The translations under genes and the position numbers were made by a program. A DNA stretch of 49,722 bases, counting the filler, from Catajapyx aquilonaris (taxonomy: Eukaryota), in NCBI GenBank assembly GCA_000934665.2. It is 2 parts of 2 records of this genome, joined end to end, with 100 filler letters (N's around TTAATTAATTAA, not from the genome) between each part and the next. Parts side by side here need not be neighbours in the genome. Positions count along the whole stretch, not along the records: positions 29,385 to 49,722 come from JYFJ02006289.1; 1 more part is not named here. One strand, given 5' to 3'. Every line of letters begins with the position of its first letter. Within the stretch, counting starts at the first letter, position 1. Shown piece after piece: positions 10,812-49,722 of the stretch. The notes under the pieces are model-generated. The model searched no databases, was not told where the DNA came from, and worked only from the letters and a program-made list of their open reading frames with translations.

Positions 10812-13800
10812 TGAGGCCAATATTAATTTTTTAATGCTTATTATACAGTTTATCCTGGAAGTCAGGCTAACCTGCGCTCAACCGAGACGCTTTGGTTGCC
10901 CTTCAGAGTTAGGATAAAACTCACTCTCATCATGATTGTGTAGTTTCCGGTGCAACAAACCCCATGCAAAAGCAGAGTCCTTCGCTATAAAGTTTAATGG
11001 AAGAGCCTGCGGGTTTGAGGAGGGCAAAGGACAAAAACACACAGAAAAGGGTTCAAACTGCAAACAATGAGACCACTACAGTAAAGATTGTCCTTTAAAA
11101 AATGCAACATGCATTGGAAGTGAAGGACATCAGATCGATCCGAGACACCTTTTAAACTTAATAATATCGAGTGTAACATATGGCGGTTCGTTAAAAGTAA
11201 TAAATTTCTGGTGTCCAGTGTTTTGCTATATCAATGCTGTATACATTTTAAATAATATGCAGTGAATTTTATAAGCACTCATGCAAACTTCAAATCGTCG
11301 TACCTGAAAGACATTAAAGTTTGATAGTTCCAGTGAGGGTTGCGCATTTTCAAGTCTTCATTTTTTATATTCCTCTAGCCTGCAATAAATGCGTTTGGAT
11401 CCTATAGGTATCGGATGGCAAAGGCTCCAAGTTGGTTATTCCCGTGAGATGCCGGGAAATGTACTCTTCGAGGATTGATTTTTTTACTGCACGAAAATGG
11501 CACGCAAAAATAACAGTATTTTCCCTCTCTCTAGGTTTTCTTATCTGCGACAAACCGTGTTTGAAACAAGCCATGGATTTCCTCCATTTGTCTTCATATC
11601 TGTAATTGAAAGAAGGTTACATGTTCACTGCGGCACATGAGCTATTCCTGGCAAGTATTCACTGTACTCGTAATAATTTAATGGTTTCAGATGGCAATCT
11701 CTGAAGTGGCCAGTGCTTATTTCAGTAAATATTTAATTTCGGAGCAATATTCCATGTTGATTACAGAGGTTTGCATAAGTGCTTCGCCGGTTGTGTCGTA
11801 TCACTCGACCTTCCAGAGTGCCAATATTGTTTTATAAGTAGGTCCTCCCTTCACCTGCACCACAGGGGCCATATCAAGTGACACCTAACCCGACACCCAG
11901 TCGTGTCGTCGCTTGTTATTTTCTCGGCACCTTTTCAGCGACCGAGCAATATCTCCCGAGGCCATTTCTTACACTGCGGCGGTCTAGCTTCTGGCCGCGT
12001 CTGTAAATTCTGTCGACAGGATAAATGTCCCCGGCATCCAATTGCGACTCCGGAGGGTTTCAGTGTGGGTGGGGGAGGTAAATTTCTCGCATTGCGGAGG
12101 AAAGGCTGGCATTATCTTCCGGTACGGGATCAAAGGATTGCGGAACTCTATTAAATGCTTGTGCATAAAGTGAAAACGACATTTCACCGGTGGGAGGCCC
12201 TGGCGACTTGTGTTGAGCAGCCGAGCAAGCCCACCCCTCTTTATTGTCCTGTACTGAACCTAAAGAGCTAATAATGAGTTTGCTAATGCGCTTTACGGGT
12301 TATTCCGGGTTCCTAACCGTAACTTCTCCTAATGTAAACCCCCAGGCCGGAGCTCCACTTGGAATAGTTTACTTGGTAAGAGGAGGGAAAGCGGACCTGC
12401 CGAGTTTGCTCATTCCGAATGGATTCATTCCTGCTACAAACATAAACTCGTAGGGTCCCTTTTTACTACGAGGCATGTCTCTCCCTGCGTGTTGGGTGCA
12501 GCAAAACGAAATATCGCCTACATAAATGGGGGTAAAGCAGGCATAAAGCCCGGGAGCGTCACCCACAACCGTCCAGATACCCGAGAGAGGAGAGTCTCTC
12601 AAAGTTGTAAGCTGTTTAGGCCCATATTTTTGGCTCTCAAGTGTCGGCGACGCCACTTTTCATGGCGGCCTCTCTCTCTCTCGACGGAACCAAATCACGA
12701 CCTGATTTGCTGGGCCCGGAGCTTTAGCCCTCGCGGGTTAATTCGGACAGACCATTCTCCCCGAGTAAACGAGTGCTTCTGAACGAGTGGTTCAATCTGT
12801 TGTCTTAAACCTCGGGTCAAGCCATGCTTCTTGGAGCGATGTGCCAGCAGCAGGGGCATGCAGGCCGATAAGCCGCCGCGAGTGGTTGTTAAACCAGTGC
12901 AGTCTCTTTCCTCTGGCAGAATAAAACGGCCCCAAACAGCCTGTGGATAAAGCCAGCTCTTTACAGTGTGCTGAGCAGTTGCTGAGCATCAGAGCAAAAA
13001 GGGAACAAGCGAATAATGCTGCTGGTTATTTATTATTCGGAAGGGGTCTCTAATTGCTTTCCTTAAAAAATATATAGTGGATTAAACCAGCGAGAGGTGA
13101 CAAACACAATGGTTTCACTAACATGTTCCACTTTCCATCCGGATAATGCTTCAACAGGCCACTTTATATACCTTCCGGTCGAGCAAGGCCAGTAACAATT
13201 CACGTAAAATCTTGTTGCCCCATTGAGGTTGCCGGGCTCTGGGGTCTATCGTGACGTTCTAACCATCCAGCCCGGTGCTTTACCACATAACATTCCACAA
13301 TGTTATAGACGTCCCCTNCCCCCCCCCCCCCCGCCTCCCGTTTCGCCAGCTCGATTTTCCAAGGTTTGCGAGCAAAATGAACGTGTGCTGTATACACTTT
13401 GATGCATATACAATGTTGGGCTAGAAGAGAAACTCTCTGGTTTTCATCCCTCCTCCACACCTTCCCCTCCCCCCTCCTTAAATCAGCATTATTCATGACA
13501 TGTGGCACCTTTTATGCCGCAGGTACCTCCCGCGACGTTTCCAGTGTGTCGCGCTGAATTTGCAATGGCCAGCCTCCAGGAATATTACAGACGCGGTTTC
13601 TTTTCTCTCACTTTTTTTTTAAAAGGAAAGGTAGTGTGTGTGTGTCCCTCTCTCTCACTTTTCGTATGCCAAATGAAGTTTCCGTTTTCTGTCGCATTTT
13701 TTTTCTTCTTCTTCACCAGCCAACCACCTCCTTGCCTAGGCGACGCTCAAAAGTTAATCTCTGGAGAGGGCAAAAGGGAAGTAAGTTGTAACGTATTCTG

Positions 13801-21436: not shown

Positions 21437-21581
21437 NNNNNNNNNNNNNNNNNNNNNNNNNNNNNNNNNNNNNNNNNNNNNNNNNNNNNNNNNNNNNNNN
21501 NNNNNNNNNNNNNNNNNNNNNNNNNNNNNNNNNNNNNNNNNNNNNNNNNNNNNNNNNNNNNNNNNNNNNNNNNNNNNNNNN
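21437..21581. other. Assembly gap (145 N)
   Basis: Run of N between a (CT)n tract and a C run. Confidence 0.98.
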
Positions 21582-25667: not shown

Positions 25668-26315
25668 TGAGGTGTGATCAAAAAGTTCCTGTACTGTCGA
25701 TATACCGTGAAATCCAGTGGAGGTACGAACTTGTGACGTTAGGGGGCGCTAGGTACACCTTTCATCTATTAGTCTGAAAAATTTCGTCTTCATAGGGGCA
25801 CATGTTTCCGAGTTTCGGCAGTTTTCTTGACACCGTGTTGTTGTGCTTCTGCGATTTTTCGAAATCGCTTATGTTAGGGAGCAAAAGATTTGTGAATTTT
25901 TCTTCCAGCTCAACAAAACTTCGGATGCAACCAACCGAATGCTGAACAAGGCTTTTGATGAGCAAGTTGTAAGACAAGCAATAACATATATGAGTGGGTT
26001 AACAGCTTCGAAGGTGGCGCGTCAAGTTTGCAGCAAAATCAACTCAATGCTGATCCTTTTCTTTGACATTTTAGGAATTGTGCATATGGAGTTTCTCCCT
26101 CCTGGTAAAACTGTCAACGGCAAGTATTAGGGCCTACTGGGATGGTTTGAGACGATTTAGGCTCAAATGGCCGGAGATGTGGAAGAACATATACGTAGAC
26201 TGGTTGCTGCACCATGACAATGCCGCCTGCACACACCTCACGCGTAGTCAGGGACTTCCTGATAAAAAATAACATGACCACTGTTCCCCACCCTGCATAT
26301 TCGTTTGTCCTGGCC
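25668..26315 (+). mobile_element. Degenerate, internally deleted mariner transposon
   Basis: Mariner-type end GAGGTGTGATCAAAAAGTTCC near 25668. Frameshifted transposase motifs MLILFFDILGIVHMEFLPPGKTVNGKY, WLLHHDNA, AHTSRVVRDFLIKNNMTTVPHPAYS across ORFs 25843-26130, 26078-26272 and 26214-26465. Confidence 0.9.
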
Positions 26316-26514: not shown

Positions 26515-26827
26515 TGGAGCCGGGGATCGAACCCGGGACCTTTCACATGCAAAGCGAACGCTCTACCACTTTATAACTGATATTAAGGAGGTTGGCCCAG
26601 CATTGCCTTTCAACCTCCAAGGATAGGGAAGGAAGGAAGCGGCTGTGGCCTATAATACGGAAGCGACCCCGGAATTATCCTAGAAAGACCGTGGAAAACC
26701 ACAGAAAACCACGGTCATGGTTGCCGGCCCCGGGATTCGAACCCAGGACCTCCCGATTAGCAGTCGGACGCCCTATCCACTATGCCAACCTGCTTCGGTA
26801 GACGCTCTACCACTGAGATACACCCCC
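26515..26827 (-). pseudogene. tRNA-Ala(TGC) pseudogene interrupted by a SINE
   Basis: Removing the insert and one TSD gives GGGGGTG TA TCTC AGTGGTA GAGC G TTCGC TTTGCAT GTGAA AGGTC CCGGG TTCGATC CCCGG CTCCA followed by TTTTTT. Anticodon and T arms are intact with a G3:U70-type end, but there is a D-stem substitution and a 3-nt deletion in the acceptor stem. Confidence 0.9.
26571..26801 (-). mobile_element. Full-length tRNA-derived SINE (231 bp)
   Basis: On the minus strand: A box TGGCATAGTGG, B box GGTTCGAATCC, body GTGGTTTTCTGTGGTTTTCC...TAGGCCACAGCCGCTTCCTTCC, 3' hairpin GGAGGTTG..CAACCTCC and a short AT tail. Flanked by a 13-bp TSD ACGCTCTACCACT (26558-26570, 26802-26814). Confidence 0.9.
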
Positions 26828-29284: not shown

Positions 29285-29384
29285 NNNNNNNNNNNNNNNN
29301 NNNNNNNNNNNNNNNNNNNNNNNNNNNNTTAATTAATTAANNNNNNNNNNNNNNNNNNNNNNNNNNNNNNNNNNNNNNNNNNNN
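29285..29384. other. Artificial contig spacer (44N-TTAATTAATTAA-44N)
   Basis: Exactly 100 bp and symmetric; the central 12-mer has stop codons in all six frames. Confidence 0.95.
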
Positions 29385-30371: not shown

Positions 30372-33300
30372 GATGAGCACCTGAAGGCGACGCTACATTC
30401 CTTCTTGAGCGGGGAGCATGCGGACAATCTCCTCCGGATAAAGTGCCTCCTTGCGTACATCATCGACTATCTGAAGTCGGAGAAGGCCACTGCGGAAGAG
30501 AAGCAGGTGAATTAAATTAAGTTTTTAAAATGTGCGGAAAACCAAACGGCGATCCGACGTCGTCGTCACGCAACAATACGAGTAAACAGTGTCGACAAAA
30601 GGGACGTTGTTTGAGGGTATTGTTGAATGAGAACAAAACGATGAAGTCAGATCGTAGTTTCGTTTTCCGCACTTTAGGGCGATTCCTGAATTTTTAATGC
30701 CTTTTTAAAACCTCGATATAATGGTCATTATATGCGGGAAAGTTTACCTTATTGAAATTAATAAAGGACTGGATAAAAAGGGCGTTATATCAAGGTTTTA
30801 CTGTATTAGCATTTCGATTAATGCGCCTGAAACCATTCCATTCATTAGCATTATGATTGTCTTATTCTTTTCCCAGCGTTTGATCGAGACTTATCCGAAG
30901 CTAGAAGAGCTTCTCGGAGGTGTGATTTTCTTGGTTCAAAGATGGATGGAACCTCTCACCAACCACAGCTACGTGCCTCAGGACCTGGTTGAAACTGTCT
31001 CGTTGCTGCACCAGTTGCTGCCGTTCCTCTCCAATGATCAGGTTGAATCATACACTTTATTTTGACCAGGTGTAATCCGTAACAATTAAGTATCGCTAAT
31101 TGTTATGCGGCTCGTACCTTTCAGTTGACGAAGAAAAAGGCGATTGTCGAAATATGTGAGTCGTGGGGTGTTAAGGAGCTTGAAGGCTACGAGGACGTCG
31201 TGGACAACACAATAATGCTTCGAATCCAATGGGCTGCGAAGGTATTCAACTCCATACTTTTTTTCTACAGCCAAAATTTTTGTTGCCATTCCTATATACA
31301 CTTACAGTGTGGATTATTAAATGCTCGTCCTCATCTTGTCATTATTAGGCTGAAGATATACGCCACCTGAACCAAGTGTCCAAACTGCTTCAGTTTTGCA
31401 CGGTTGACGAGAAAAGTCCCAACTCATTACGAGTCTTGCTAACGAGCAAGATAAGAAGCCGGCTCTACTTGCATTCGAAGCAAGGGAAGAAGTTTCTCGG
31501 AAAGTTATTTGCAATATCTCCCGAGTACACGCAGGTAAAATATATCCATTAAGTGTAACCATGCGCTAGTTCACGCAAATTTTTATTGCAGTACTTGCAC
31601 GTGAAAGTGAAGCTGATTCTGAGGCAGTGCAACTTCGGCGATGCTGAAATATATGGTGAGATATATTTCTGCGCTTGGACCAACGCTAATGGGCCTGCCA
31701 AGAAGGTGAGATGTACTTTTCAAGTATTCTTCAAGTATATACAAGTACATTTTACAAGTACATTACTTACAGCTTACATTTTACAAGGACATTACAGCTT
31801 ACATTTTACAAGTACATTACAGCTTACATTTTACAAGGACATTACAGCTTACATTTTACGAGTACATTACAGCTTACATTTTACTAGTACATTGCACATT
31901 ACATTTTACGAGTACATTACAGCTTACATTTTACGAGTACATTGCACATTACATTTTACGAGTACATTACAGCTTACATTTTACAAGTACATTACAGCTT
32001 AGATTTTAAGAGTACATTACAGCTTACATTTTACAAGTACATTACAGCTTACATTTTACGAGTACATTACAGCTTACATTTTAAGAATGCATTGCAGATT
32101 ACATTTTACATGTACATTACAGCTTACATTTTACAAGGACAGCTTACAGTTTACAAGGACATTACAGCTTACGTGTTACAAGGACATTACAGCTTACATT
32201 TTATGAGTACATTTCTTCAAGTATTTTTATCCGATATTGGATGTGCAAATTGTGTAATGAGATTTATTTGCAGGAAATTGAACATGCGATGCAAGACATT
32301 ATGCACAGACTGGTATTGTCTAAGAGAAGCGATAATGCCGAGACGATGATGCTTCCCGGACAAATCTACATGCGGTTTCTCTCCTTTTGGCACAAGAATT
32401 ATGGATATCCTGAAATGAAGAAGACTCTTGCGCGACTCTACACGCCCATCTTGTGGCGTAGGCTGAAGGTACTTGTTTTTAAAAAAGTCGTACGGAGACT
32501 TGAGCTCAACATTTGTAATTTTTCCAGGCTGTTAACCACAGCGTACGAGCGAACGCAGCCATAGTTCTAATGGACATTTTCCCATTGGAAGCATTCGACA
32601 TTCGATTCGATAACAAGGAGAGTTTGCTGCTGAAGCAATGCAACGCTTTCATATCGTTACTGTTGGATGATCATCAGGTCGTACGACTTGTTATTCTTCA
32701 GGTAAGTGGAAGGATTCAGGTCGTAACAATGCAGCAATGTACGACCTTCAGTGTCCGCTACCTTGTTAAAATGGAAGCTTTAAAGTTGCGTTTACATGCG
32801 CGCGATTAGTGAGCGATCAGACCAATTGTTTGGGGCGGAAATATACCGTTACTTTCGCTCAGCTGGTCACTAATCAAATCGTTCGCATGTAGCTTAAAGT
32901 AAATGTTTGCTTAGCGTACTGTAAAAATTGTTATTTTTTCCCGTAATTGATATCACCGAATGATTCAGGCGCAGCGATATGATTTGTTGACCTCTGATCA
33001 TTTTACAGGGAATTGCCGAGATAATCGGATCCTTCTGGAGGGTTTTCCCGGAAGATATGCTGCACAGTATGCTGGATATCATAACCGCAAAATTGGCTTA
33101 CGACGACAGTTGGTACAAGGTGCGAGTGGCGGCCATCAAATCTGTGCAGAAAATGATCGAGAAGTGCGGCTCTCTCTTTCCGACGAAATTTGTGTACAAT
33201 CTTCGGGTGAGTAGATCGATGGTGTGCTGCGTATGATGAATGTTAACCTTTTGCTATAATTTGACAGGAGGTTGTATCGGATGACCATGCGGCAGTCCAG

Positions 33301-36890: not shown

Positions 36891-38249
36891 ATGATCAACA
36901 GCACCACTTTCTGCGGCCTGGATGATCTCAGTAGTTCCGAGGCTTGTCAACTGTTGGATCCAACTCCGGATTGCTGCTTTCCTAATTTGTCCGATTATTT
37001 CGTCAACTTCGCTATAATCTACTGGGTGTTTCTGGCCATATTCGGAAGCACAGTACATTTGCTGACAATAGTCGTCATCATTTACGGAAGGAAGAAGTGT
37101 AAAGATCCGTTGAGGCAAGTAATTCCGTTCGTATACGTTGCGATTCGCTAATATATTTTTTTCCAGTCCGCTCCTTAGCGTCACGACGACCCTTCTGCTG
37201 AACTTGAACGTCGCAGATTTCCTCAGCTGCTCCACAATATTTCCGCTAAATGCCGTCACCTATTTTTATCGCGGATGGCCCTTCAGTCCCAAGCTTTGCC
37301 ATGCCGTCGCATTTCTACGAGACGTATTTTCCTATTCGTCCCGGACAAGTCTCGCCGCAATGGTACTTTGCAGGTTAGTTCCTATTTATCGCGGTATCAC
37401 CAATCAATTATTTAAATATTTAACTTGTATTTGCAGACTGTTGGGTCTCACTTATCGGAAAGCATGTCGGATAATCTTCGGAACATTACATGGCGCCCCA
37501 GTAATAATTGGGATTTGGCTCATCTCGTTTGGAGCGTTCGCAATAATCTTTTTGAGTGTAAGTCATATATGTTCGTTTATGTTAATGCCGATGCGAACAC
37601 CGTATTTTTTTGTGCAGGAGATTGGATCTTTCGCGTACAGTAAATCAGCAGGACAGTGCATGCCTCTTCCTTACGAGCGATTCGAATCTGGGATGATCAT
37701 TGGAGCCGTGTTTTTACTTCCGTGGTTGGTCCTAGTGTTTTCGCTTTTGGGAGTGGTCGTCAAACTTCATCTTAGCAAGAAAAATATATTCGCTATTCCG
37801 TAAGTTTAACGAATAATTGTCAAAATGAGATTCACCCACATTATCTTTCAGCGGATTGGCTTCGACGACTCGAGAGCAGCTGCGGTTAAAGGAGAGTCGC
37901 ATGACCACATTTTGCGCGCTTCTCGCAGCCTCGTCGACCGTAACCACAATTCCACTTGTCACGATGTATTTCTGCTGCTATGAACATTCCAAAAAGTCGG
38001 CGTATCCGTACATCCATCTCATAGCTCTATTGCGAATTTTGCTGGACTTTAACATCTACATCCTTAGGTGAGACATTATTCGCAACACTCAATGACATTA
38101 TATGATCGTACTCTACTTTTTTCAGGATCAGTTGCTACAGAGAATCGTACCTTATCTTCTTCAGAGACGTGAGAAGTCGGCTGCGGCATCTTATTAGCAG
38201 ACCCTTCGATAAAACTAATCGTGATAGTAATTACTGTGTAATAATGTAA
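36891..38249 (+). CDS. Divergent rhodopsin-class GPCR (moody/Tre1/GPR84-like), copy A, 357 aa
   Basis: Exons 36891-37114, 37167-37373, 37437-37557, 37618-37799, 37852-38067, 38126-38249. Seven hydrophobic segments, NLNVADFL (TM2), WPFSPKLC (ECL1/TM3), ECL2 Cys (GQC), FLLPW (TM5) and helix-8-like YRESY. Intron 1 is GC-AG. Subfamily assignment is tentative. Confidence 0.85.
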
Positions 38250-38562
38250 TTGTTGCACATTTCCTAGGGAAACTGTTGCGACACTCTGCATGATACAGTC
38301 GACAATACGACTTTCGCTGATGGAAAAACACCGATTCTGACGTGAACTAATGAAACCTTGTAACTCGCATTGTACTGACAACGTACAAGAAATAACGTTT
38401 AGTAACTTGTCGCATCATTGTCCTTGTCACTTATTTTTATTCGGTCATTAATATTAAGTTGTTTGTGTGGAATTGCATACAATACGAAAATGATTCGTCT
38501 TTACATGAATAATGCATGGTAAGTTGCAGCCTTATATTTCATGAGCAGTACGTACGATAATA

Positions 38563-39938
38563 ATGTTCAAGGAGACCGTATTCTGCGGCCTAGATGACCT
38601 TAGCACATCCGAAGCGTGTCAGTCGTTGGATCCAGCACCGGACTGCTGCTTTCCTAATTTTCCGCACGCTTTCGTCGACATTGCTGCGATATTCTTGTTG
38701 TTTCTGGCGGTATTTGGGAGCGTAGGACATTTGCTGACTATAGTTGTCATCGTTTACGGAAGGACAAAGTGTAAAGATCCGTTGAGGCAAGTTACATGCT
38801 TCGTTATACATTGCGATTTGTTAATGTATTATATATTTTTCAGTCCGCTGCTTAGCGTCACGACGACGCTTCTGCTGAATTTGAACGTCGCAGATTTTCT
38901 CACATGCTCTACAATATTGCCGCTGAATGCCCTCACCTATTTTCATCACGGATGGCGCTTCAATCCGAACCTTTGCCATGCGTTTGCGTTTATACGATGC
39001 GTATTTTCCTACTCGTCCCGGACTAGTCTCGCCGCAATGGTTCTCTGCAGGTTAGTCGTCTTTCTGTGCCTATCAGCCGTCGACATTAATGTATCGCATT
39101 TGCAGACTGTTGGGGTTAACCTATGGGAAACTTTGTCGGATAATATTCGGCACATTCCACAGTGCGCCGGCGATATTCGGGATATGGATCATCTCGTTTG
39201 GAGCGTTCGCTGGGATTTGGATGAAGGTCTGTCGCACAATGGACCATGCAAAAACTATGCACGTTTATTTATTTATTATTTATTTAGTTTACCCCGAAGA
39301 GGTCGTCGCTACTGATTCAATATTCCGCATGTTTCATTGTAGGATGTACGGATTTTTGGGTACAGCAAGGCAGCAGGACAGTGCATGCCTCTTCCTTACG
39401 AGCGATTCGAATCTGGGATGGTCATCGGAGGAATTTACCTTCTTCCGTGGTTGGTCCTCGTATTTTCGCTAGCGGGAGTAGTCATCAAAAATCATTTCAG
39501 CAAGAAGAATTTGTTTGCCATTCCGTAAGTTACTTTTAAGTGCATAATTGCAAACGTGATTCGCCGCAATCAATTTTCAGCGGGTTGGCTTCTACGACTC
39601 GAGCGCAACTGCGATTAAGAGAGACCCGCATGACCATACTATGCGCGCTTCTCGCAGCGTCATCGACCGTAACCACAATTCCGCTAGTCATCATGTACTT
39701 TTGCTGCTGGGAACATTCCAGGCACTCGCCATATCCGTACGTTCAACTCATATCTCTCTTGCGGATATTTCTGGACTTCAATATCTACATCCTTAGGTGA
39801 GACCCTTTTTTTTTTGCGCACTTCAATGATTTTTTTAAATTCCACGATTAAATTTTCAGGATCAGTTGCTACAGAGACTCGTACATTAGGTTCTTCAGAG
39901 ACGTGAAATGTTGGTTGCGGCATCTTATTCGCAGATAA
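38563..39938 (+). CDS. Divergent rhodopsin-class GPCR, tandem copy B, 342 aa
   Basis: Exons 38563-38786, 38844-39050, 39106-39226, 39343-39524, 39581-39796, 39860-39938. The first five exon lengths (224/207/121/182/216) are identical to copy A, with the same motifs and the same GC-AG intron 1. Confidence 0.85.
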
Positions 39939-40715: not shown

Positions 40716-43700
40716 GCAGTGGACTAAAGATGGAGATTATTTGCTGTGTCAGAGCGGAGATGAACTCCAGGTGGTCAGCATGGAGACTGGGCAGAAGGTG
40801 CGGGGGTTCAGGATGGACGAGGACGCGGTGGTGACCTTTGACCTGAGTCCGGACAACCAGGTGCTGGTCACCTACCACAAATCTGGGGTCTTCTATCAAC
40901 TCGCATGGAGCGGTCAGTATTATTAATTGACCTCCCTAACCATGTGCCATGTGGCTCGAAATAGGGTATTATAAATGATAATTAATAAATGAATACATAA
41001 TATATAAGTACGTGAATAAGCATACAAATACATAAAATGAGTACATAAATCAATATAAATTACTAATGAAATGTGTAAATAAATGACAGAATAATGACAT
41101 GAATGAATAAGTAAATAGGCCTACGTAAACATAAATTAATTAGGAAATAACAAAATAAGTTAATAAACAAATCAATTAGTTATTAAAGGAAGTCAACAAA
41201 TTATAAGTTAGTAAACAAAGATTAAATAGGAAATGAACAAATTAATGAGGAAATTAGTCAACAAATTAATTTTTTAAATGAACAAATTAATTTTTAAGAA
41301 TGAACAATTAATTTTAAAATAAATGAACAAATTAATAAAAAAGATGAACAAATTAATAAAAAAGACGAACAAATTAATAAAAAATATGAACAAATTAATA
41401 AGTTAAATATGATTAAATTGCACAGTACAAATGTTTCAGTATCAGGAAATGATCCAATTAAATGAAACTAAATGAACACGCGATTAAAACCGAAATGATT
41501 TCAGATTTGTCCACGACCCGTGTTTGGAAGTCGATCCACCGCGGCCCTGTGTCCCTCCTGACCTTTGACCCGACCTCCACGTTGCTGGCCAGCGGAGGCA
41601 GCGACTCCAGCATAAAAGTGTGGGACGTGGGCAAACACTACTGCACACACAACCTGAAAGGAGCCGCCGGAGTCTTCAGGTAATTCTCGCTTGGAAAATG
41701 CGGCTTGCATTGTTGGTTCTACCGGGTTAATATTTCCAGCGTGGTCCAGTTCCATCCGGACATGTCCCGGATGCGGATATACGGTGCGACGAGTGGCGAT
41801 CCCAAGATTTGCGCCTGGAACCTGAAGACTTCGAGTATGGTCGCGACGTTGAAAGGACATTTCAGTACCATCACAGCCCTTGTGTTCACCGCTGACGGGA
41901 ACAGAATGCTCAGGTTTATCTCGCTCTCAATCAAGGAGAATGAGTGTTCTATTGCGCTCATATTTATTTGGTTCTCTTTTCCAACAGCTGCGGACGAGAC
42001 CGAGTCGTAATAATGTGGGATCTACAGAGCGACACGGCTTTGAAGACCATTCTGGCGCTCGAGTGTCTTGAAGGCTTGGTCCTTTTGCCTGACGGACAAT
42101 CCTTTCCCGAACTTGGGGTCGACCCAACTGCAGGCCCGCATTACATAACGGCAGGCGAACGTGGCCAGTTGCGGACATGGAGTGTTGCATTAGGCCGTGA
42201 AACCATCCCGGTTCCACCAAGCAGCCAACCAGGATCGCAGCTAGTTCATCTGTCGTTGCATCTGTCGAAAATGGAGATCCGCACCGCAACGCATGATCAT
42301 CACATTTGCTTTCACGCACTGTCCGACTTATCGCAGCGACGTCAGATGGTCGGGAGCAACGAGGAGGTGCTGGATTTAGCATTCCTCGGCGACTCGTTGG
42401 TTGTTGCTACGAACAGTCCGGTTATCCGATTGTATGATTTGGCTACGTGGTCCTGCCTGCCGATAGCTGGACACTCGGACACTGTAATGTCCGTCGCATC
42501 GGGTCCAAAGCCGGACTTGTTCGCATCGGCATCTAAAGACAGGACTGTGCGGATATGGAAAGTTGCGGATGGAAAAGCCATTTGCGTCGCCGTCGGAAGC
42601 GGACATACCGGAGCTGTCGGTGCCATCTGCTTCGGTAACTTAACTGCAACCAGGCTGGTCACAGGCGCTGGCGATACATGCATGAAAGTGTGGGAATTGG
42701 ACAAGTCGGCTCTCCGCAGCGGCCAAGAGGCAACGTTGGCGTGCGTCCGAACCGAAGTGGCGCACGAGAAGGACATAAACTGTGTGTGCTACTCGCCAAA
42801 CGATAAGATAATCGCAACCGGATCGCAAGATAAGACTGCTAAGGTCGGCTTGTTGCTAGGCCGTTAACGAGTTGAAATTAACCTCTACTGTTTTGCAGAT
42901 ATGGGACGCAATTAGCGGCGACCTCATGGGAACAATGAGAGGTCATCGCAGAGGCGTATGGTGGACAAGGTTTTCTCCTGTGGATCAAGTGTTGGTTACG
43001 GCTTCAGGCGATGCGACCATCAAAATCTGGGCCATTATAGACCAAGTTTGCCTTAAAGTAAGTCGCTTTCGGCACATTGTCGGGACATTGGTCGGATATT
43101 GTCTGTATATTGTCGGGATATTGTTGGGACATTGTTCGGATATTGTTGGGATATTGTTGGGACATTGTCTGGATATTGTCGGGAAATTCTTTGGATATTG
43201 TCAGTATATTGTTGGGACATTGTTCGGATATTGTCTGGATATTGTTGGGACATTGTTCGGATATTGTCTGGATATTGTTGGGACATTGTTCGGATATTGT
43301 CGGGACAGTGTTCGGATATTGTCTGGATATTGTCGGCACATTGTCTGGATATTGCTGGCACATTGTCCAGATACGCTCCGGATATTGCCGGCACATTGTC
43401 CAGATATCGTCTGCACATTTTAAGTACTCACACTTTTCATTTGCAGACGCTTGAAGGCCATTCATGCTCGGTCCTACGAGTCGAGTTCATATCACGTGGA
43501 ATGCAGCTGGTTAGTTCAGCGTCCGATGGCATCGTTAAGCTCTGGAATGTGAAGGAGAACGAGTGTGTTAATACGTTCGGACAACACGACGATAAGGTTT
43601 GGGCCATTGCGGTTTCACAAGATGAGATGCGGCTGGCGACTGGCGGATCGGATTCGCATTTGGTCATTTGGAAGGATGTGACCGAATCGGAACGGATGGA

Positions 43701-44433
43701 AGAGGAGGAGAAACGAGATAAGCTGCTGCAGGAAGAGCAGACTCTCTCCAATCTGATGCATCAAGGAAAGTTCGTTAAGGCGTTAAAACATGCCATTCGG
43801 CTTGATATGCCGTTGAAGGCGTTGAACATTTTGAAGAGTAAGTACATGCGGATTAGGACTTTGCAACGTTTTCTATTATTTCGATCAACTTTCAGGACTT
43901 AAGCTGGACGGTGATGGTTTACAAGGCGCGGTGATGAGCCTGCGTGAGGACCAGCGGAAGGAGCTGCTTCGGTTTGCCTGCGAGTGGAATACGAACGGGA
44001 AGAACTGCCACGAAGCGCAGGATATCATCGGAGTGCTTCTGCGGACTGGGACGGACGACGAGTTCCTCTCGATGCCCAAATCCAGGGAGACGTTAGAGGC
44101 TCTGCTGCCGTACACGCAACGGCACATGACCCGCCTCAATTCGCTGGCTCGCAACCTTGCTTTCATCGACTACGTTGCGACTTCAATGAAAGCGACGCTC
44201 CAACCCAGGTACTGTTCGATCATACTTGTTGTTACTTGTTGTTAACGACTAAACATTTCAGAGAGGAACCGGCGCAACAGTCGAAACCACCGTATGTCAT
44301 AGACGTGGTTGGAGAAACTAAAGTTGCTGCGGAATCGACTGACAAGTCGGAGAGGGTGTTAGGACGCAAGAAAAAGCGACAGGTCCAGGAAGAAACAAGA
44401 AAGAAGAAGGCGAAAGTTATAAGTGCGGAATGA
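40454..44433 (+). CDS. TBL3: Transducin beta-like protein 3 / UTP13 (WD40 SSU processome component), 846 aa
   Basis: Exons 40454-40509, 40576-40627, 40720-40912, 41505-41679, 41740-41913, 41988-42843, 42899-43057, 43447-43837, 43896-44208, 44262-44433. Signature motifs PFYTGGKIQ, HYCTHNLKG, AHEKDINCVCYSPNDKIIATGSQDKTAK, GHRRGVW, and Utp13 C-terminal WNTNGKNCHEAQ and EALLPYTQRHMTRL. Confidence 0.96.
40651..40715. repeat. (TAT)n microsatellite in TBL3 intron 2
   Basis: Run of TAT triplets ending just before the TTGCAG acceptor at 40719. Confidence 0.95.
41230..41400. repeat. A-rich ~20-bp tandem repeat in TBL3 intron 3
   Basis: Repeated ATGAACAAATTAAT(AAAAA) units. Confidence 0.75.
43071..43410. 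repeat. 11-bp/33-bp minisatellite in TBL3 intron 7
   Basis: 11-mers GGACATTGTTC / GGATATTGTCT / GGATATTGTTG arranged as 33-bp trimers. Confidence 0.95.
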
Positions 44434-44982
44434 TTAAAATTTGAAAGTTTTATAATTATTGCTTTTTATTTGTAATGTAAATGGTTCGATGCCGTAATGT
44501 AAGAATGTGTGACCCCCCCTTTTTTTTTACATTACGGCATGAACTATCGCCTTCCGTTTTCAAGTCGACAATGAAAATTTTAATTAAAAACACTGCGCAA
44601 TCTATATGATCGTTACACTTTTGCGTTACAATCGACTGCGAATGTTGGATCGTTTCCAAGAAACTCGAGCATTTCTCATTAGCCATTGTTTTGCTTCTTC
44701 GAAAATATTCCTTGCAATTCTATTGTTTCTGGTTGCTACGACTTTTCCGAGCTGACAATAAACATTCTTCTGCTGACTGCGAAAGAACTTAGCCGCCATT
44801 GTTCCTCTCAACTACGACAGAAAAGCAAGCTATCATAACGAGGGTAAGGACTAATTAAGATTAACATGCGACTAGGTAAAGTGATAGGATATTACCCAAA
44901 TGAGTGCGATCATGCAAAGAAACAATTGTAATTACTGAACGTCGCTTTGTGTTCATTAGTTGCGACTGACAGTGGTGACAGG

Positions 44983-45939
44983 ATGAAGCCGTCGGTTGTG
45001 TCCGTGATCTTAGCCATCCTTTTGGTGAGTACGATCGCTTCAATGCGGACGTGTTCATGAACTTGTCGATTCGCAGGCGCGAGTACAGAGTCGTTGCGTG
45101 ACTCACGGAGCGTGCGATTACACCAGCGGCGCTCCATGCCAGAAGGACACATACCCAATTTTGATGGACGACCCGGAAGCGCAACAGAAATTTACATCGA
45201 TGTGTCCCGAAGCGGCCGCACATTTGGGTAAGAACATCTGTTCGAATCGCAATGTGTTAGTAACGTCCTTTTCCGAGCAGCGGCTGGCGGATGGAAAACA
45301 TGTTGTTCGGCGCAACAGATCGACCTGGCCAAGCAAGATTTTGGGCTTGAATTGGCCGAAGCAATGTTGGGTCAATGTCCGTCCTGCGTACGTAACATTA
45401 AGCAGCTAATGTGCAACATCGTGTGCTCTCCGAACCAGTCAAGCTTCATGAAAGTTGACGAAACGAAGGAATCGAACGATGCTCCCGGATCCATACAAGT
45501 ATTGAAAATGACTGTGCATGTGACGAAATCGTTCGCTGAAGATTCGTACCAGTCGTGCAAAGATATTATTTCGTCGATGACCGATACACTCGCTATGGAT
45601 TGGATGTGCGGACGGTGGGGATCAAATAATTGCACTGCGGACAGGTGAGAAAATTATTATTTCATATCGGGATCCAACATAAATCTCATTCCGATTTCAC
45701 AGATGGTTTGATTACATGGGCAACAATCCATTCTCGCCGTTTACGACCACATACAAAATATCGGACAATAAAGTCGGCAACTTTGTGCCGTTAAACTCAC
45801 GGATGATTCCATGCAACTTGCAGCCAACGGTGAGTCGAACGTACTTCTAAACAATGAGCAGTTCATGACCATCTCGTTACAGCCTGACACTGCGGCCTGC
45901 AATTGTCAAGACTGCCCAGCGTCCTGCTCCGGACATTAG
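44983..45939 (+). CDS. Secreted protein consisting only of an NPC1 N-terminal (sterol-binding) domain, 246 aa
   Basis: Exons 44983-45024, 45077-45227, 45281-45644, 45703-45829, 45883-45939 (TAG). Signal peptide MKPSVVSVILAILLARVQS, then CVTHGAC, CCSAQQI, QCPSCVRNIKQLMCNIVCSPNQSSFM, SFAEDSYQSCKD, MCGRWGSNNCTADRWFDYMG, SPF and CNCQDCPASCSGH*. AATAAA at 45994-45999. Confidence 0.9.
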
Positions 45940-46206
45940 GACTACGTGCTCAAACTTTGCACATCAACTGTAACAACGAAAGCAACGGTCAAAAATAAAT
46001 GCAACATGACTTAACGCTAATTTATCACCTACAACTTGCAGATCACATGATCATTAAGCCAGTCTTATTCGATGCGGGAAATTAATACTAGCCTACATTT
46101 GAACCAATAACTTAACATACTGAACAGGCATGTGAGCGATTAGCGCCAATGAGCAATTAAATTCGGTTTCATCGAGCGAATCGCTCACATTAGACGCAGC
46201 ATTTCA

Positions 46207-48375
46207 TCACACGTAATGAGTGCCTTCTAAGAACTCACTGACGCTGTTAACATTGCAGGACCACTCGTTCAGTAGGTCCGGGTGCGGCAAGCCACACCCG
46301 AACGATTCTCGCACGTACTCGTACGACTGGGGCGAACACATGTGCAGATTGAGCGCGAAGCACTGCAGCTCCGGACTCAAGTCCGCGTCCTGATCCCCGT
46401 TCATCAGTCGCTTGAACAGTTCGCCGGCCAGCCCGTTCAGCGCACTGCTCCTGTCCACCCGATTCAGTCGCTCCGTCTCCAGCCTCAGCATTTCCTTCAG
46501 CTGGTCCACGTTCCTCTCCTGCTCCACCGTGCGTTCCCTGCAGGCCTTCAGGAGCTGCCTGCATTCCTCAAGCTGATGATCCTTCCTCGCAAGCAGCTTC
46601 TCGTACTTCACTTTGACCTGACCTCCCTCCGACGTGTAGCAATGGTCGTGCCTCGTGCCCAAATCCGGCAGATCTTCGCTCGAAGGTCTCGCCGAGTCTG
46701 AATCGTCTGAAGCGGACTACGAAAGGAAAACACAATAATTATTCCGGCAACTTGTTTCGACACTCACGCACTTTTCATTACCATTTAATCGAAGAGCCAT
46801 CCATACATAATATAAAGCAAAGTCTTGTTTGTTTGTCCATTTCGTACCCATTTTATACCCATTTTCTGCCTATTTCGTATCCATTTTGTATCAATTTCTT
46901 ACCCATTTTGTGCCCGTTTTGTATCAATTTCTTACTCATTTTGTGCCCATTTTGTATCAATTTCTTACTCATTTTGTGCCCATTTTGTATCAATTTCCTA
47001 CTCATTTTTGTGCCTGTTTAACACCCATTTTATACCCGTTTAGCATCAGGTTTCATACCCGTTTTGTGCTCATTTAGCGTCCGTTTCGTACTCACTTTAT
47101 GCCCATTTCATACCCATTCGGAATTCATTTTGTACCAAACTTCGTAACGATTTCTTAACTCATTTTGTATCTATTTGGGTGCCTGGTTTTATACCCATTT
47201 CATACCCATTTATTGTCCATTTTGTGCCCATTTCATACCCATTTAGTATCGATTTCATTCCCAGTTCATATCCATTTCTTATCAATTTTGTGCCCATTTC
47301 ATACCCATTTCCGATCAATTTTGTGCCCATTTCATACCCATTTCTGATCAATCTTGTGCCCACTTTGTAACCATTTCTGATCAATTTCTTATCAATTTTG
47401 TGCCCATTTCATACCCATTTCCAATCAATTTCTTAACAATTTTGTGCCCATTTCATACCCATTTCCAATCAATTTCTTAACAATTTTGTGCCCATTTCAT
47501 ACCCATTTCTGATCAATCTTGTGCCCACTTTGTAACCATTTATCATCAATTTCTTATCAATTTTGTGCCCATTTCATACCCATTTCCAATCAATTTCTTA
47601 ACAATTTTGTGCCCATTTCATACCCATTTCTGATCAATCTTGTGCCCACTTTGTAACCATTTATCATCAATTTTGTGCCCACTTTGTAACCATTTATCAT
47701 CAATTTTGTGCCCACTTTGTAACCATTTATCATCAATTTTGTGCCCACTTTGTAACCATTTATCATCAATTTTGTGCCCATTTTGTAACCATTTATCATC
47801 AATTTTGTGCCCATCTTATGCCCATTTCTGTATCCTCGCAAAGAACGGGTTCCGTGCTGGTTTCAGCTAGATTTAATTCAGGTGCGCATGATGACACACA
47901 CCTGATTCTGCTCAGGGCCTGGGCCTGCGTGTCCGTTCTCCTTGGGCGCGACGCTGGCCAGTGGGACGGCGTCTTCCTTCAGCTGCCGTCGGTGCCTGTA
48001 GCCCTCGAGGAAGGAGTCGTCCCTGAAGTGGTTGGAGCACACCTGGTGGTGTACGGAGGCCTCGAAGCCATCCGCATCGTTACGCAAGGCCTGGACCCAC
48101 TTGGACAGCAAACGGGGCTTGTGCAACGGAAATCTGCAGGAAGGTCATACCCCGGTACTTCGTTAACAATGAGCATGCCGCATACTGCGACTAGATTGTA
48201 AATTGCTGGCCATTAACTGGTTTGAAATAATAATAATAATTTACATGACCGTTAACAATTTTTTTTTTTTGTTGTTGTACACAATGGAACACTCTGGAAC
48301 AAACCGATGGAACGTGATTCCTGCTCCCTTCCTGAACCGATTCTTGCATCCGAATGCTGAGCAGGACTTGGGCAT
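46207..48375 (-). CDS. THAP-domain protein derived from the N-terminal part of a P-element/THAP9-like transposase, 270 aa
   Basis: Exons 48375-48305, 48133-47902, 46716-46207. C2CH THAP domain (MPKSCSAFGC..FHRFP..KW..VCSNHF..LKEDAVP), DHCY motif, coiled coil, then SPELQCFALNLHMCSPQSYEYVRESFGCGLPHPDLLNEW typical of P-transposase HTH regions. Ends in TGA TGA before any catalytic domain. Confidence 0.9.
46836..47830. repeat. 11-bp/33-bp minisatellite in THAP gene intron 2
   Basis: 11-mers ATCAATTTTGT / GCCCATTTCAT / ACCCATTTCTG and variants, as 33- and 44-bp units over about 1 kb. Confidence 0.95.
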
Positions 48376-48399
48376 CTTGTGCTTCTGCCCCCCCAAGGG

Positions 48400-48725
48400 C
48401 GAGACCAGGGGCGGGACTGGGGGCCGAACCAGGGGCAGGAACAGGGAACAAAAAGAGGAGCCTCGCCGGTTAGGCAGCGTCAAAATTGTGTTCCTGAACA
48501 ATGCGCACAGTTGGGTGCGCGCTGTTCCTGTTCAACGCGCATGTCCGCGCACAATGACGCATGCGCAGTAGCACCCAACGCACTATTAATGAACGCATGC
48601 GCAATTGCGTCCGACGCATTATTAAGGAAAAGAAAAATGGCGGAAATTTCAAACAATGCAAGTTGACACTTTGACGCGCAATTAGGGGCGTTACATGTAC
48701 TGTACATGCGCGTGCGTCATGCAAA
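48400..48725. promoter_or_regulatory. CpG-rich putative (bidirectional) promoter with NRF1/EWG-like sites
   Basis: ACGCATGCGCA at 48557-48567 and 48593-48603, further GCGCATG / CATGCGCG half-sites, a GGGGCGGG box and a YY1-like AAAATGGCGG, all upstream of the THAP ATG. Confidence 0.5.
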
Positions 48726-49190: not shown

Positions 49191-49722
49191 CATACATTTT
49201 CATTACATTTCATGCATTTTCGTACATACAATTATTTATTTGTTTTATGCATACATTTTCATTACATTTCATGCATTTTCATACATACAATGGTTTATTT
49301 ATTTTATGCATACCTTTTCATTACATTTCATACATTTTCATACGTACAATTATTTATTTATTTTATGCATACATTTTCATTACATTTCATGCATTTTCAT
49401 GCGTACAATGATTTATTTATTTTATGCATACATTTTCATTACATTTCATGCATTTTCATACATACAATTATTTATTTATTTTATGCATACCTTTTCATTA
49501 CATTTCATACATTTTCATACGTACAATTATTTATTTATTTTATGCATACATTTTCATTACATTTCATGCATTTTCACAATTATTTATTTATTTTATGCAT
49601 ACATTTTCATTACATTTCATGCATATTCACAATTATTTATTTATTTTATGCATACATTTTCATTACATTTCATGCATTTTCACAATTATTTATTTATTTT
49701 ATGCATACATTTTAATTACATT
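49191..49722. repeat. 59-bp/53-bp AT-rich minisatellite
   Basis: Six 59-bp units from 49191, then 53-bp units from 49545; continues past the window end. Confidence 0.95.

Follow-up and report, generated by a model that had tools for sequence, protein, structure and literature searches.

Arthropods are sterol auxotrophs; all of their sterol is obtained from food and moved through aqueous compartments. The soluble sterol carriers known are NPC2/ML proteins, SCP-2, and lipophorin. Of these, the NPC2/ML-domain proteins are small, secreted or luminal, disulfide-rich carriers of a single sterol and are expanded in arthropods. In human NPC1, the N-terminal domain (NTD) binds one cholesterol molecule and exchanges it with NPC2.

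Eight Npc2 genes are described in Drosophila (PMC10609107). As to the NTD, that of human NPC1L1 (22-284) produced in insect High-5 cells is reported to be a soluble, secreted, and monomeric cholesterol binder, and the domain has nine conserved disulfides (PMC3078110). In human NPC1, cholesterol binding is reported to be abolished by Q79A and by P202A/F203A (PMC4718804). Short natural proteins of this kind have been found in Ixodes scapularis, in which LC-MS/MS of nymph saliva revealed two "NPC1" proteins (274 and 286 aa) and four further short NPC1-like genes are present in the genome beside full-length NPC1 genes (PMC7930271). The available text of that paper reports no functional study of the short proteins, and our literature search found none of any natural metazoan NTD-only protein. 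Adebali et al. (2016) described a separate cholesterol-binding NTD protein in Naegleria, most chromalveolates, and oomycetes (PMC4990510).

Here, we describe an NTD-only gene in a 49.7-kb stretch of DNA (the window), the host of which is placed beside insects in a tree of the TBL3 gene from the window, i.e., it is an arthropod. Judging from its sequence, the gene is probably a functional, lineage-specific NPC1 paralogue that has been cut down to the N-terminal sterol-binding domain, and the predicted product is likely to be a soluble protein, secreted or luminal, that binds sterol. The protein fits the form known from tick saliva, having a length of 246 aa (255-286 aa in the others), a signal peptide, the NTD only, and no transmembrane (TM) segment.

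Gene structure and surroundings

The gene consists of five exons on the plus strand (44983-45939) with a CDS of 741 nt, encoding a protein of 246 aa with 18 Cys. The four introns (52, 53, 58, and 53 nt) are all of the GT-AG type, and none has a length divisible by 3; thus, the frame is preserved by splicing alone. Exon 1 (44983..45024) contains the ATG and 14 codons that make up the bulk of the signal peptide, followed by the donor GTGAGT. This ATG is the first in its ORF, and an in-frame stop lies immediately upstream of 44932. Exon 2 (45077..45227), bordered by an AG acceptor and a GTAAGA donor, encodes the end of the signal peptide and the first part of the NTD, including Cys 21, 27, 35, and 57. 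The NPC1_N core (residues 65-186) is encoded by exon 3 (45281..45644), which holds nine Cys in total, including a Cys-Cys pair, as well as Gln77. Exon 4 (45703..45829) encodes residues 186-228, which include the Pro-Phe loop (195-199) as well as Cys223, and exon 5 (45883..45939) encodes the last four Cys (234, 236, 239, and 243), followed by Ser-Gly-His and TAG. This TAG (45937-45939) is the sole stop of the CDS and is located three residues past the final Cys of the NPC1_N domain. A candidate polyadenylation signal, AATAAA (45994..45999, plus strand), was found by motif match 55 nt past the last base of the stop.

The gene is bounded on its downstream side by a separate convergent ORF (46207..46716, minus strand), the last coding ORF of a THAP/P-element-transposase-like gene, whose stop (46207-46209) lies 268 nt downstream of the NTD gene. 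This ORF is derived from a transposable element, as it matches the P-element-transposase HTH domain (Tnp_P_element, 5.7e-13), and a THAP domain (1.5e-10) was found farther up at 47881-48144. The original prediction had described five clean exons for a signal peptide and a complete NTD with 18 Cys, a stop that follows the last Cys by three residues, with AATAAA about 55 nt on, and the end of a convergent gene about 270 bp downstream. All of these were confirmed, and the eight splice dinucleotides are intact.

The neighborhood of the locus is rich in transposon-derived (P-element/THAP-like and mariner-like) sequences and minisatellites. Capture of the NTD gene by a mobile element was considered and rejected, since no direct or inverted repeats of at least 18 nt were found in 43900-46800. 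Rfam and ARAGORN searches over the window gave no RNA gene near the NTD locus; their single match in the whole window was a tRNA-Ser at 26722-26793.

Domain identity and predicted fold

Exon 3 alone matched Pfam NPC1_N (PF16414) with an E value of 8.2e-30 and 104.7 bits (cut-off, 27), covering profile positions 52-159. Exon 4 extends this match at 163-205 (E 0.0018, under the cut-off when taken alone). Among PDB structures, exon 3 matched the NTDs of NPC1L1 (3qnt, 1.2e-16) and NPC1 (3gkh, 8.8e-15). Exon 2 alone had no match in Pfam or in the PDB at the threshold of E<=10, and exon 4 alone had 0 PDB matches at E<=10; because neither exon matches the PDB, their residue mapping rests on a MAFFT alignment. 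When spliced, residues 18-244 of the protein align with 26-258 of a 1325-aa cricket NPC1 at 34% identity (E 1.7e-42). The match of the gene to the NPC1 N-terminal domain is far above chance expectation.

The only hydrophobic stretch in the 246-aa protein is residues 4-15, the core of the signal peptide. No hydrophobic segment follows residue 15, and neither a TM segment nor a GPI-like tail was found. The product has two N-glycosylation sequons, and its soluble form would be ~25 kDa.

The fold was modeled on exon 3 alone (120 of the 246 aa), and the AF2 model had a pLDDT of 89.2. In the Foldseek search against the PDB, all 11 matches of this exon 3 model at E<=0.001 were NTDs of NPC1, NPC1L1, or NCR1 (TMq 0.68-0.74); the original prediction had proposed a comparison of the predicted structure with the human NPC1 NTD. 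The next matches were Juno and folate-receptor chains (E ~0.8-1.3, TMq 0.34). The folate receptor family (Folate_rec, PF03024) was also matched by exon 3 at 30.1 bits, just above the cut-off of 29.8, and by the longer ORF at 29.7 bits, just below it. Membership of this family was rejected, as the Folate_rec match is ~75 bits weaker than that of NPC1_N and the corresponding fold matches have E values of 0.8-1.3; the kinship is a distant clan relation only.

Homologues and phylogenetic placement

Word-index searches at two length ranges found no close orthologue of exon 3, and, among about 15 billion proteins, no possible orthologue exceeded about 37-44% identity. Identity peaked at 37% across the domain and at 34-44% across exon 3. 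An exhaustive search of representative sequences gave 805 matches at E<=0.001, the best with 34% identity and 112 bits, and none at E<=1e-30.

Short NTD-only models are present in RefSeq, including a 267-aa protein of Ornithodoros turicata (XP_064455043.1), 255-aa proteins of Limulus polyphemus (XP_013783069.1) and Tachypleus tridentatus (XP_076350024.1), and three 268-aa proteins of the fish Ophioblennius macclurei. The original prediction had proposed a search for NTD-only orthologues in relatives; short forms exist elsewhere, but no close orthologue was found.

Two trees were constructed, one quick and one careful. The quick tree has 66 rows, for which only the 65 homologues were kept whose alignment runs from model residue <=60 to >=235; the careful one has 29 rows, with 28 chosen homologues from named and some unnamed taxa. 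In both, the window protein is a long unplaced branch in no starred clade, with a length of 1.47-1.71 substitutions/column compared with medians of 0.75-1.11. The Limulus short form groups with Limulus full-length NPC1, and a fish short form groups with a full-length protein (96/84). A clade of the window protein with the Ornithodoros and Limulus short forms was rejected by the AU test (p 0.0028, log-likelihood 23.7 lower), a result to be read with caution because long branches are involved; the Ixodes saliva proteins were outside the set. Given this rejection of a single clade, NTD-only genes probably arose repeatedly.

Integrity of the gene

Conserved columns were defined as those at least 80% conserved across 17 full-length NPC1 homologues in a MAFFT alignment. 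The window protein retains all 18 Cys columns, which correspond to nine predicted disulfides, and the four Cys of exon 2 align with Cys in 15-17 of the 17 full-length proteins. Over all conserved columns, it retains 31 of 38, within the ranges of the full-length rows (31-38, leave-one-out) and of nine other short forms (29-37). Most full-length NPC1s retain more of the conserved non-Cys columns than it does. The long branch, together with this value at the bottom of the full-length range, could reflect relaxed constraint.

The principal alternative is that the gene died recently or was never expressed, being a partial duplicate, that is, a functionless 5' piece of a full-length but divergent NPC1 paralogue that was copied or severed by rearrangement near the transposon-rich region. 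The long, unplaced branch, the lack of an orthologue among about 15 billion proteins, and the P-element/THAP-like, mariner-like, and minisatellite sequences close by are in line with it. We nevertheless consider it unlikely. The cut is exact, as the stop, the AATAAA, the gene's own ATG, and its signal peptide all indicate, and the flanks lack repeats of the kind searched for. The open frame, the eight splice dinucleotides, and the 18 Cys are intact. In a drift simulation that scored these three jointly, with substitutions only and indels uncounted, joint survival was 15% at 0.02 substitutions/site, 0.7% at 0.05, and 0.05% at 0.1; any decay would therefore be very recent. Furthermore, all 17 full-length homologues continue past the position of the last Cys with a sequence that is often Pro-rich and then hydrophobic, whereas the in-frame sequence past the TAG contains neither a Pro-rich linker nor a hydrophobic helix, so the stop is not a fresh nonsense mutation within a longer exon. 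The claim of a stand-alone gene rather than a broken copy is thus supported within the window, where the intact frame and Cys, the conserved columns, the lack of TM exons (see below), and the drift simulation all favor it.

Ligand-critical residues

Gln77 is aligned with residue 79 of human NPC1 according to the native-numbered structure 3jd8_A, in which exon 3 query residue 3 corresponds to chain residue 70, and its column is Gln in 15 of the 17 full-length rows. Likewise, P198 aligns to a conserved Pro column (Pro in 15/17), and the Pro-Phe pair is present. By alignment, the two ligand-critical positions (the Q79 equivalent and Pro-Phe) are conserved in the window protein. On the other side, two of the seven changed columns are non-conservative (Y24H and P163S). 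The residue preceding Cys35 is Pro in the window protein; we take this position to be that of Asn41 in human NPC1, a contact of the 3-hydroxyl group.

The changed columns and the long branch may instead point to a real secreted NTD-only protein that is not a sterol carrier but binds another lipid or a lipid-modified ligand, or acts as a regulator or decoy competing with membrane NPC1 for NPC2 or sterol. The wider ligand-binding clan, seen in the borderline Folate_rec score and the Juno and folate-receptor chains next in the Foldseek list, would accommodate such a role, and for the NPC1L1 NTD, a pocket larger than that of the NPC1 NTD and a wider sterol specificity are reported (PMC3078110). 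Retention of the Q79-equivalent Gln and the Pro-Phe pair, the ~75-bit margin of NPC1_N over Folate_rec, and the fact that the characterized family members among the PDB and Foldseek matches are all sterol binders make this unlikely.

Other NPC1 exons in the window

No NPC1 transmembrane or other NPC1 exons were found outside 44900-46000 across the 49.7-kb window. With 25 full-length NPC1 queries, tblastn gave 65 HSPs, every one within 44900-46000, and the 91 HSPs elsewhere in the window had a best E value of 0.38. Among 299 ORFs of at least 60 aa scanned with Pfam in six frames, none had a Patched or sterol-sensing match, and Pfam scans of the window gave no ML-domain (NPC2) match. The full-length NPC1/NPC1L1 architecture (Patched/sterol-sensing and middle and C-terminal luminal domains) is thus missing within the window. 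A further reading is highly improbable, namely that the five exons are the 5' end or a short isoform of a full-length NPC1 whose TM exons lie beyond the window, with a long intron that harbors the THAP-like gene. In its favor, the window continues a mere 3.8 kb past the stop, nested genes within long introns are common in arthropods, and several isoforms are annotated for the Limulus short forms. Against it stand the searches above, the AATAAA, and the convergent gene directly downstream; in addition, exon 5 carries both the stop and the last four Cys of the domain, so that a second exon with the same Cys cluster would be required for a long isoform.

Proposed function

For the soluble NTD-only paralogue, the following account of its transcription and secretion, of its binding of sterol, and of whatever physiological role it has is inferred. 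The 246-aa precursor would enter the ER via its cleavable signal peptide, and the NTD would fold into a helical domain with nine disulfides. Without a membrane anchor, it would exit as a soluble protein bound either for the lumen of endolysosomes or for the fluid outside the cells (gut lumen, haemolymph, or gland secretion). At its destination, one sterol molecule would be bound in the conserved pocket and shuttled among membranes, lipoproteins, and other sterol proteins, which would be of use to a host that does not make sterols. The NPC2-independent, ecdysteroid-precursor, and semiochemical carrier roles proposed for the product are speculation. A naturally free NPC1 head domain would represent a further type of sterol carrier, the biochemistry of which is predictable from the human domain.

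Short NTD-only genes occur in a soft tick, horseshoe crabs, and a fish, and now in a pancrustacean lineage; their not forming one clade suggests repeated evolution and hence usefulness. A broader and only tentative reading is that sterol-auxotrophic arthropods and some other animals repeatedly made soluble, secreted sterol shuttles by excising the NTD from NPC1 duplicates. The window copy might then be an ancient, rapidly evolving, lineage-specific member, with changes at pocket-lining positions that reflect a shifted ligand range, e.g., dietary phytosterols or ecdysteroid precursors. If repeated excision is true, these proteins would constitute a second class of extracellular sterol carrier, similar to NPC2. 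As a point of annotation, NTD-only genes are automatically named "NPC1" or "NPC1L1" despite the missing transporter.

Comparison with known systems

The window protein resembles the human NPC1 and NPC1L1 NTDs (3gkh and 3qnt; PF16414) over the whole length of the domain, in the 18 Cys columns, the Q79-equivalent Gln, and the Pro-Phe pair, and in the predicted fold of exon 3, the part modeled. However, its identity to them is about 30-34%, and 7 of the 38 conserved columns differ. Human NPC1 and NPC1L1 are ~1300-aa proteins with 13 TMs, in which additional sequence, often Pro-rich, and a TM helix come after the NTD, whereas the window protein ends three residues past the last Cys. NPC2/ML-domain proteins are functional analogues with an unrelated fold and family.

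The protist NTD protein is also encoded by a stand-alone gene (~300 aa) and is an NPC1 NTD homologue with a signal peptide, but it has a predicted C-terminal TM, which the window protein lacks (PMC4990510). According to the same report, it occurs only where NPC1 (12 TMs) lacks the NTD, i.e., as part of a split two-part transporter (PMC4990510). The host of the window protein, in contrast, is a metazoan, for which full-length NPC1 is the rule.

The RefSeq NTD-only models, which bear automatic names only, are closer in form. Like the window protein, they consist of a signal peptide and NPC1_N, end at profile positions 223-230 of 244, and have 18/18 Cys. Each of them groups with the full-length NPC1s of its own lineage, unlike the unplaced window copy. 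The short NPC1s of Ixodes scapularis share with the window protein an arthropod host, a similar size, and alignment to the cholesterol-binding NTD only (PMC7930271). They differ in their chelicerate host, the window host being a non-chelicerate, and the AU test on the soft-tick and Limulus forms speaks against common descent with chelicerate short forms. Because such short "NPC1" proteins are already known from a soft tick, horseshoe crabs, a fish, and Ixodes saliva, the novelty implied in the original prediction was overstated. The Ixodes proteins are demonstrably secreted (PMC7930271), the very fate proposed for the window protein, and the window gene is thus a credible, not unprecedented, candidate for a soluble sterol carrier.

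Gene structure and neighborhood

The description of the gene in the original prediction was borne out by reading positions 44500–46800 and by scripted exon assembly. The gene, designated here as the NPC1_N gene, lies on the + strand and has five exons (44983–45024, 45077–45227, 45281–45644, 45703–45829, and 45883–45939), separated by introns of 52, 53, 58, and 53 nt. All introns follow the GT...AG rule with a pyrimidine-rich tract before the AG, and because none of the four lengths is divisible by three, the frame is kept only with splicing. The start ATG is the first within the ORF, and an in-frame stop lies shortly 5′ of it. The 741-nt CDS contains one stop and encodes 246 amino acids (the window protein), including the predicted 18 cysteines. 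The TAG (45937–45939) is located three residues past the 18th and last cysteine, and the AATAAA motif (45994–45999, +), a candidate poly(A) signal, is also present, both as originally described.

A convergent gene had been placed about 270 bp downstream. The stop (46207–46209) of an ORF on the − strand (46207–46716) is indeed 268 nt past the TAG, but the gene to which it belongs is transposon-derived and truncated. This P-element/THAP9-like gene (46207–48531, −) has a THAP zinc finger split between 48244–48531 and 47881–48144 (Pfam, 1.5e-10 for the latter) and a P-element transposase HTH domain (46210–46716; Pfam, 5.7e-13) with a stop directly after it, and no catalytic part of the transposase was detected by Pfam in the window. 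The gene may have been domesticated or may persist as a repressor-like remnant. Its intron contains a complex minisatellite (46837–47834; periods of 11, 33, 66, 121, and 165 bp), which gives rise to long spurious ORFs on both strands. Further downstream, an AT-rich 59-bp tandem repeat (49191–49722; 9.3 copies, 92% matches) continues past the window end. No direct or inverted repeats of at least 18 nt flanking the NPC1_N gene were found within 43900–46800.

The upstream neighbor on the same strand is the gene of Utp13/TBL3 (~40717–44245, +), a U3 snoRNP protein, whose product shows at most 47% identity to any named homolog. A tree was built from the HSP-joined TBL3 protein and 30 named homologs, chosen for taxon spread among the 120 matches listed, in a set without crustaceans, myriapods, or springtails. 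In this 31-row tree, TBL3 was placed inside the arthropods, where a scorpion was also grouped (SH-aLRT 95), and all 23 sampled winged insects formed its sister group (support 99), which makes C. aquilonaris an arthropod beyond the insect orders sampled. The low identity and the tree position indicate that the lineage of C. aquilonaris is poorly represented in protein databases.

Elsewhere in the window, ORFs at 37123–37800 and 38545–39312 (+) match rhodopsin-family GPCRs over their first half (7tm_1; 5.9e-09 and 1.1e-09, respectively) and may be tandem paralogs or exons of one gene. ORF pieces within 31559–32561 (+) match Condensin2nSMC, a condensin II non-SMC subunit domain, in different frames (9.6e-09 and 2e-04). 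A tRNA-Ser(GCT) gene (26722–26793, −; Rfam 38.4 bits, ARAGORN) adjoins a mariner-type transposase fragment (25831–26127, +; Transposase_1, 6e-06). N runs at 13318, 21437–21581, 29285–29328, and 29341–29384 total 234 bases and were treated as assembly gaps.

Domain identity, conservation, and predicted fold

Exon 3, the domain core, alone scored 104.7 bits against Pfam NPC1_N (8.2e-30; cut-off 27), a profile that exon 4 carries on. Among PDB sequences, exon 3 matched 15 chains, every one of them NPC1, NPC1L1, or yeast NCR1, with the NPC1L1 N-terminal domain (NTD) 3qnt as the best (1.2e-16). At 34% identity (E = 1.7e-42), residues 18–244 of the window protein align with residues 26–258 of a Gryllus longicercus (cricket) NPC1 of 1325 aa. 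The structural comparison with the NPC1 NTD proposed alongside the original prediction was made for exon 3 only, modeled with an alignment of 64 homologs (mean pLDDT 89.2). In a Foldseek search against the PDB, all 11 matches at E ≤ 0.001 were NTDs of NPC1, NPC1L1, or NCR1 (TMq 0.68–0.74). The next matches were Juno and folate receptors (E of about 0.8–1.3), in line with a borderline Pfam Folate_rec score of exon 3 (30.1; cut-off 29.8); both reflect a distant clan relationship.

Conservation was measured in alignment columns at least 80% conserved among 17 full-length homologs. The window protein keeps 18 of 18 Cys columns and 31 of 38 conserved columns, the seven changes being Y24H, L53F, R96Q, T112V, V160I, P163S, and S235N. 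The same score ranges from 31 to 38 in full-length rows (leave-one-out) and from 29 to 37 in nine other short proteins. Gln77, four residues past a Cys–Cys pair, is opposite human residue 79, as mapped on the native-numbered PDB chain 3jd8_A (query residue 3 = chain residue 70), and a Pro–Phe pair occupies a conserved Pro column in the alignment. Cholesterol binding is reported to be abolished by Q79A and likewise by P202A/F203A (PMC4718804). Past the last cysteine, all 17 full-length proteins run on, many being Pro-rich and then hydrophobic, whereas the window protein stops. Its only hydrophobic segment is at residues 4–15, it has two N-glycosylation sequons (N116 and N181), and the predicted mature chain has ~227 residues (24.8 kDa, pI 5.0).

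Functional state of the NPC1_N gene

We consider it probable, and the likeliest of the readings, that the gene encodes a functional, soluble sterol-binding protein that derives from NPC1 and is either secreted or luminal. That the gene is a recently dead partial duplicate seems unlikely: the cut is exact, and a start, signal peptide, and poly(A) signal of its own are present. In a substitution-only simulation of the CDS and eight splice dinucleotides (4000 runs per rate), the intact frame, all 18 cysteines, and all splice sites jointly survived in 38%, 15%, 0.7%, and 0.05% of runs at 0.01, 0.02, 0.05, and 0.1 substitutions per site, respectively, and indels, left out here, would push survival lower still. 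A pseudogene is thus possible only with very recent death. A long branch and slightly lower conservation of non-Cys columns are common to the window protein and other NTD-only proteins (short forms). Lost contacts with the remainder of the transporter would account for both as readily as relaxed selection. It is likewise unlikely that the protein, though real and secreted, has a different ligand or a regulatory function.

Further NPC1 exons were sought by two routes. A Pfam scan of all 299 stop-to-stop ORFs of at least 60 aa in the window, excluding those touching N runs, detected no Patched or sterol-sensing domain, exon 3 being the sole NPC1-related match. In tblastn with 25 full-length NPC1 queries of at least 1000 aa, 65 of the 156 HSPs fell inside 44900–46000, and the best of the 91 outside had an E-value of 0.38, giving no NPC1 exon elsewhere in the window. 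The frame past the TAG, as read from the sequence, has no Pro-rich linker or hydrophobic helix, so a fresh nonsense mutation in a longer exon is ruled out. Because the stop and the last four cysteines are both in exon 5, a long isoform would need a second exon with the same Cys cluster, which is absent from the 3.8 kb remaining downstream in the window, and a longer gene with transmembrane exons past the window is, with no other NPC1 exon in the window, very improbable.

Relatives and origin of the short forms

A word-index search with exon 3 gave zero relatives in both length ranges. When 1.84 billion representatives were searched exhaustively, 805 matches reached E ≤ 0.001 and 124 of them E ≤ 1e-10, but none reached E ≤ 1e-30, and top identities were 34–44%; no close relative of the window protein was present in the collections searched. 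Many matches were short, and looking up the names of 30 proteins in all revealed bona fide annotated NTD-only proteins among them: XP_064455043.1 of Ornithodoros turicata (267 aa), XP_013783069.1 and three further isoforms of Limulus polyphemus, XP_076350024.1 of Tachypleus tridentatus (255 aa), and three proteins of the fish Ophioblennius macclurei (268 aa). Short proteins of a firefly, a dragonfly, and Timema reach the linker (NPC1_N positions 241–243), which suggests truncated models of full-length genes.

A careful 29-row tree placed the short form of Limulus beside its full-length NPC1, and that of the fish beside a full-length protein (support 96/84). The window protein formed a long branch (1.71 substitutions/column) outside a supported 11-row clade (96/94) to which the named insect NPC1s belong. 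The AU test rejected one clade of the window protein with the tick and Limulus short forms (p = 0.0028), a result that is suggestive and, with long branches involved, not final. The label "short" needed 12 changes for 16 rows in a quick tree of 66 rows. From these groupings, the AU test, and the label changes, the NTD-only genes look polyphyletic.

In some animal proteins, the NPC1_N domain is repeated or found at atypical positions. The best match in a 1220-aa sea-urchin protein begins at residue 550, and a 1459-aa clam protein has a match at 442–621, indicating reuse of the domain in architectures besides NPC1.

Comparison with known systems

Human NPC1L1 NTD produced in insect cells is described as a soluble, secreted, cholesterol-binding monomer with nine conserved disulfides (PMC3078110). 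In protists with NTD-less NPC1, a separate NTD homolog has been reported that is ~300 aa long and bears both a signal peptide and a C-terminal TM, and that account states that it is confined to such organisms (PMC4990510). The literature searched contained no functional work on a naturally occurring NTD-only protein of metazoans. In Ixodes scapularis, two "NPC1" proteins of 274 and 286 aa, which align only with the cholesterol-binding NTD, were reportedly detected in nymph saliva by LC-MS/MS, and the genome is listed as having four further short NPC1-like genes plus five that encode >1300 aa (PMC7930271). The short forms of Ornithodoros, Limulus, Tachypleus, and Ophioblennius end at position 223–230 of the 244-position NPC1_N profile, and the window protein does so alike. 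It is a divergent new member of a kind that databases and one tick saliva proteome already document.
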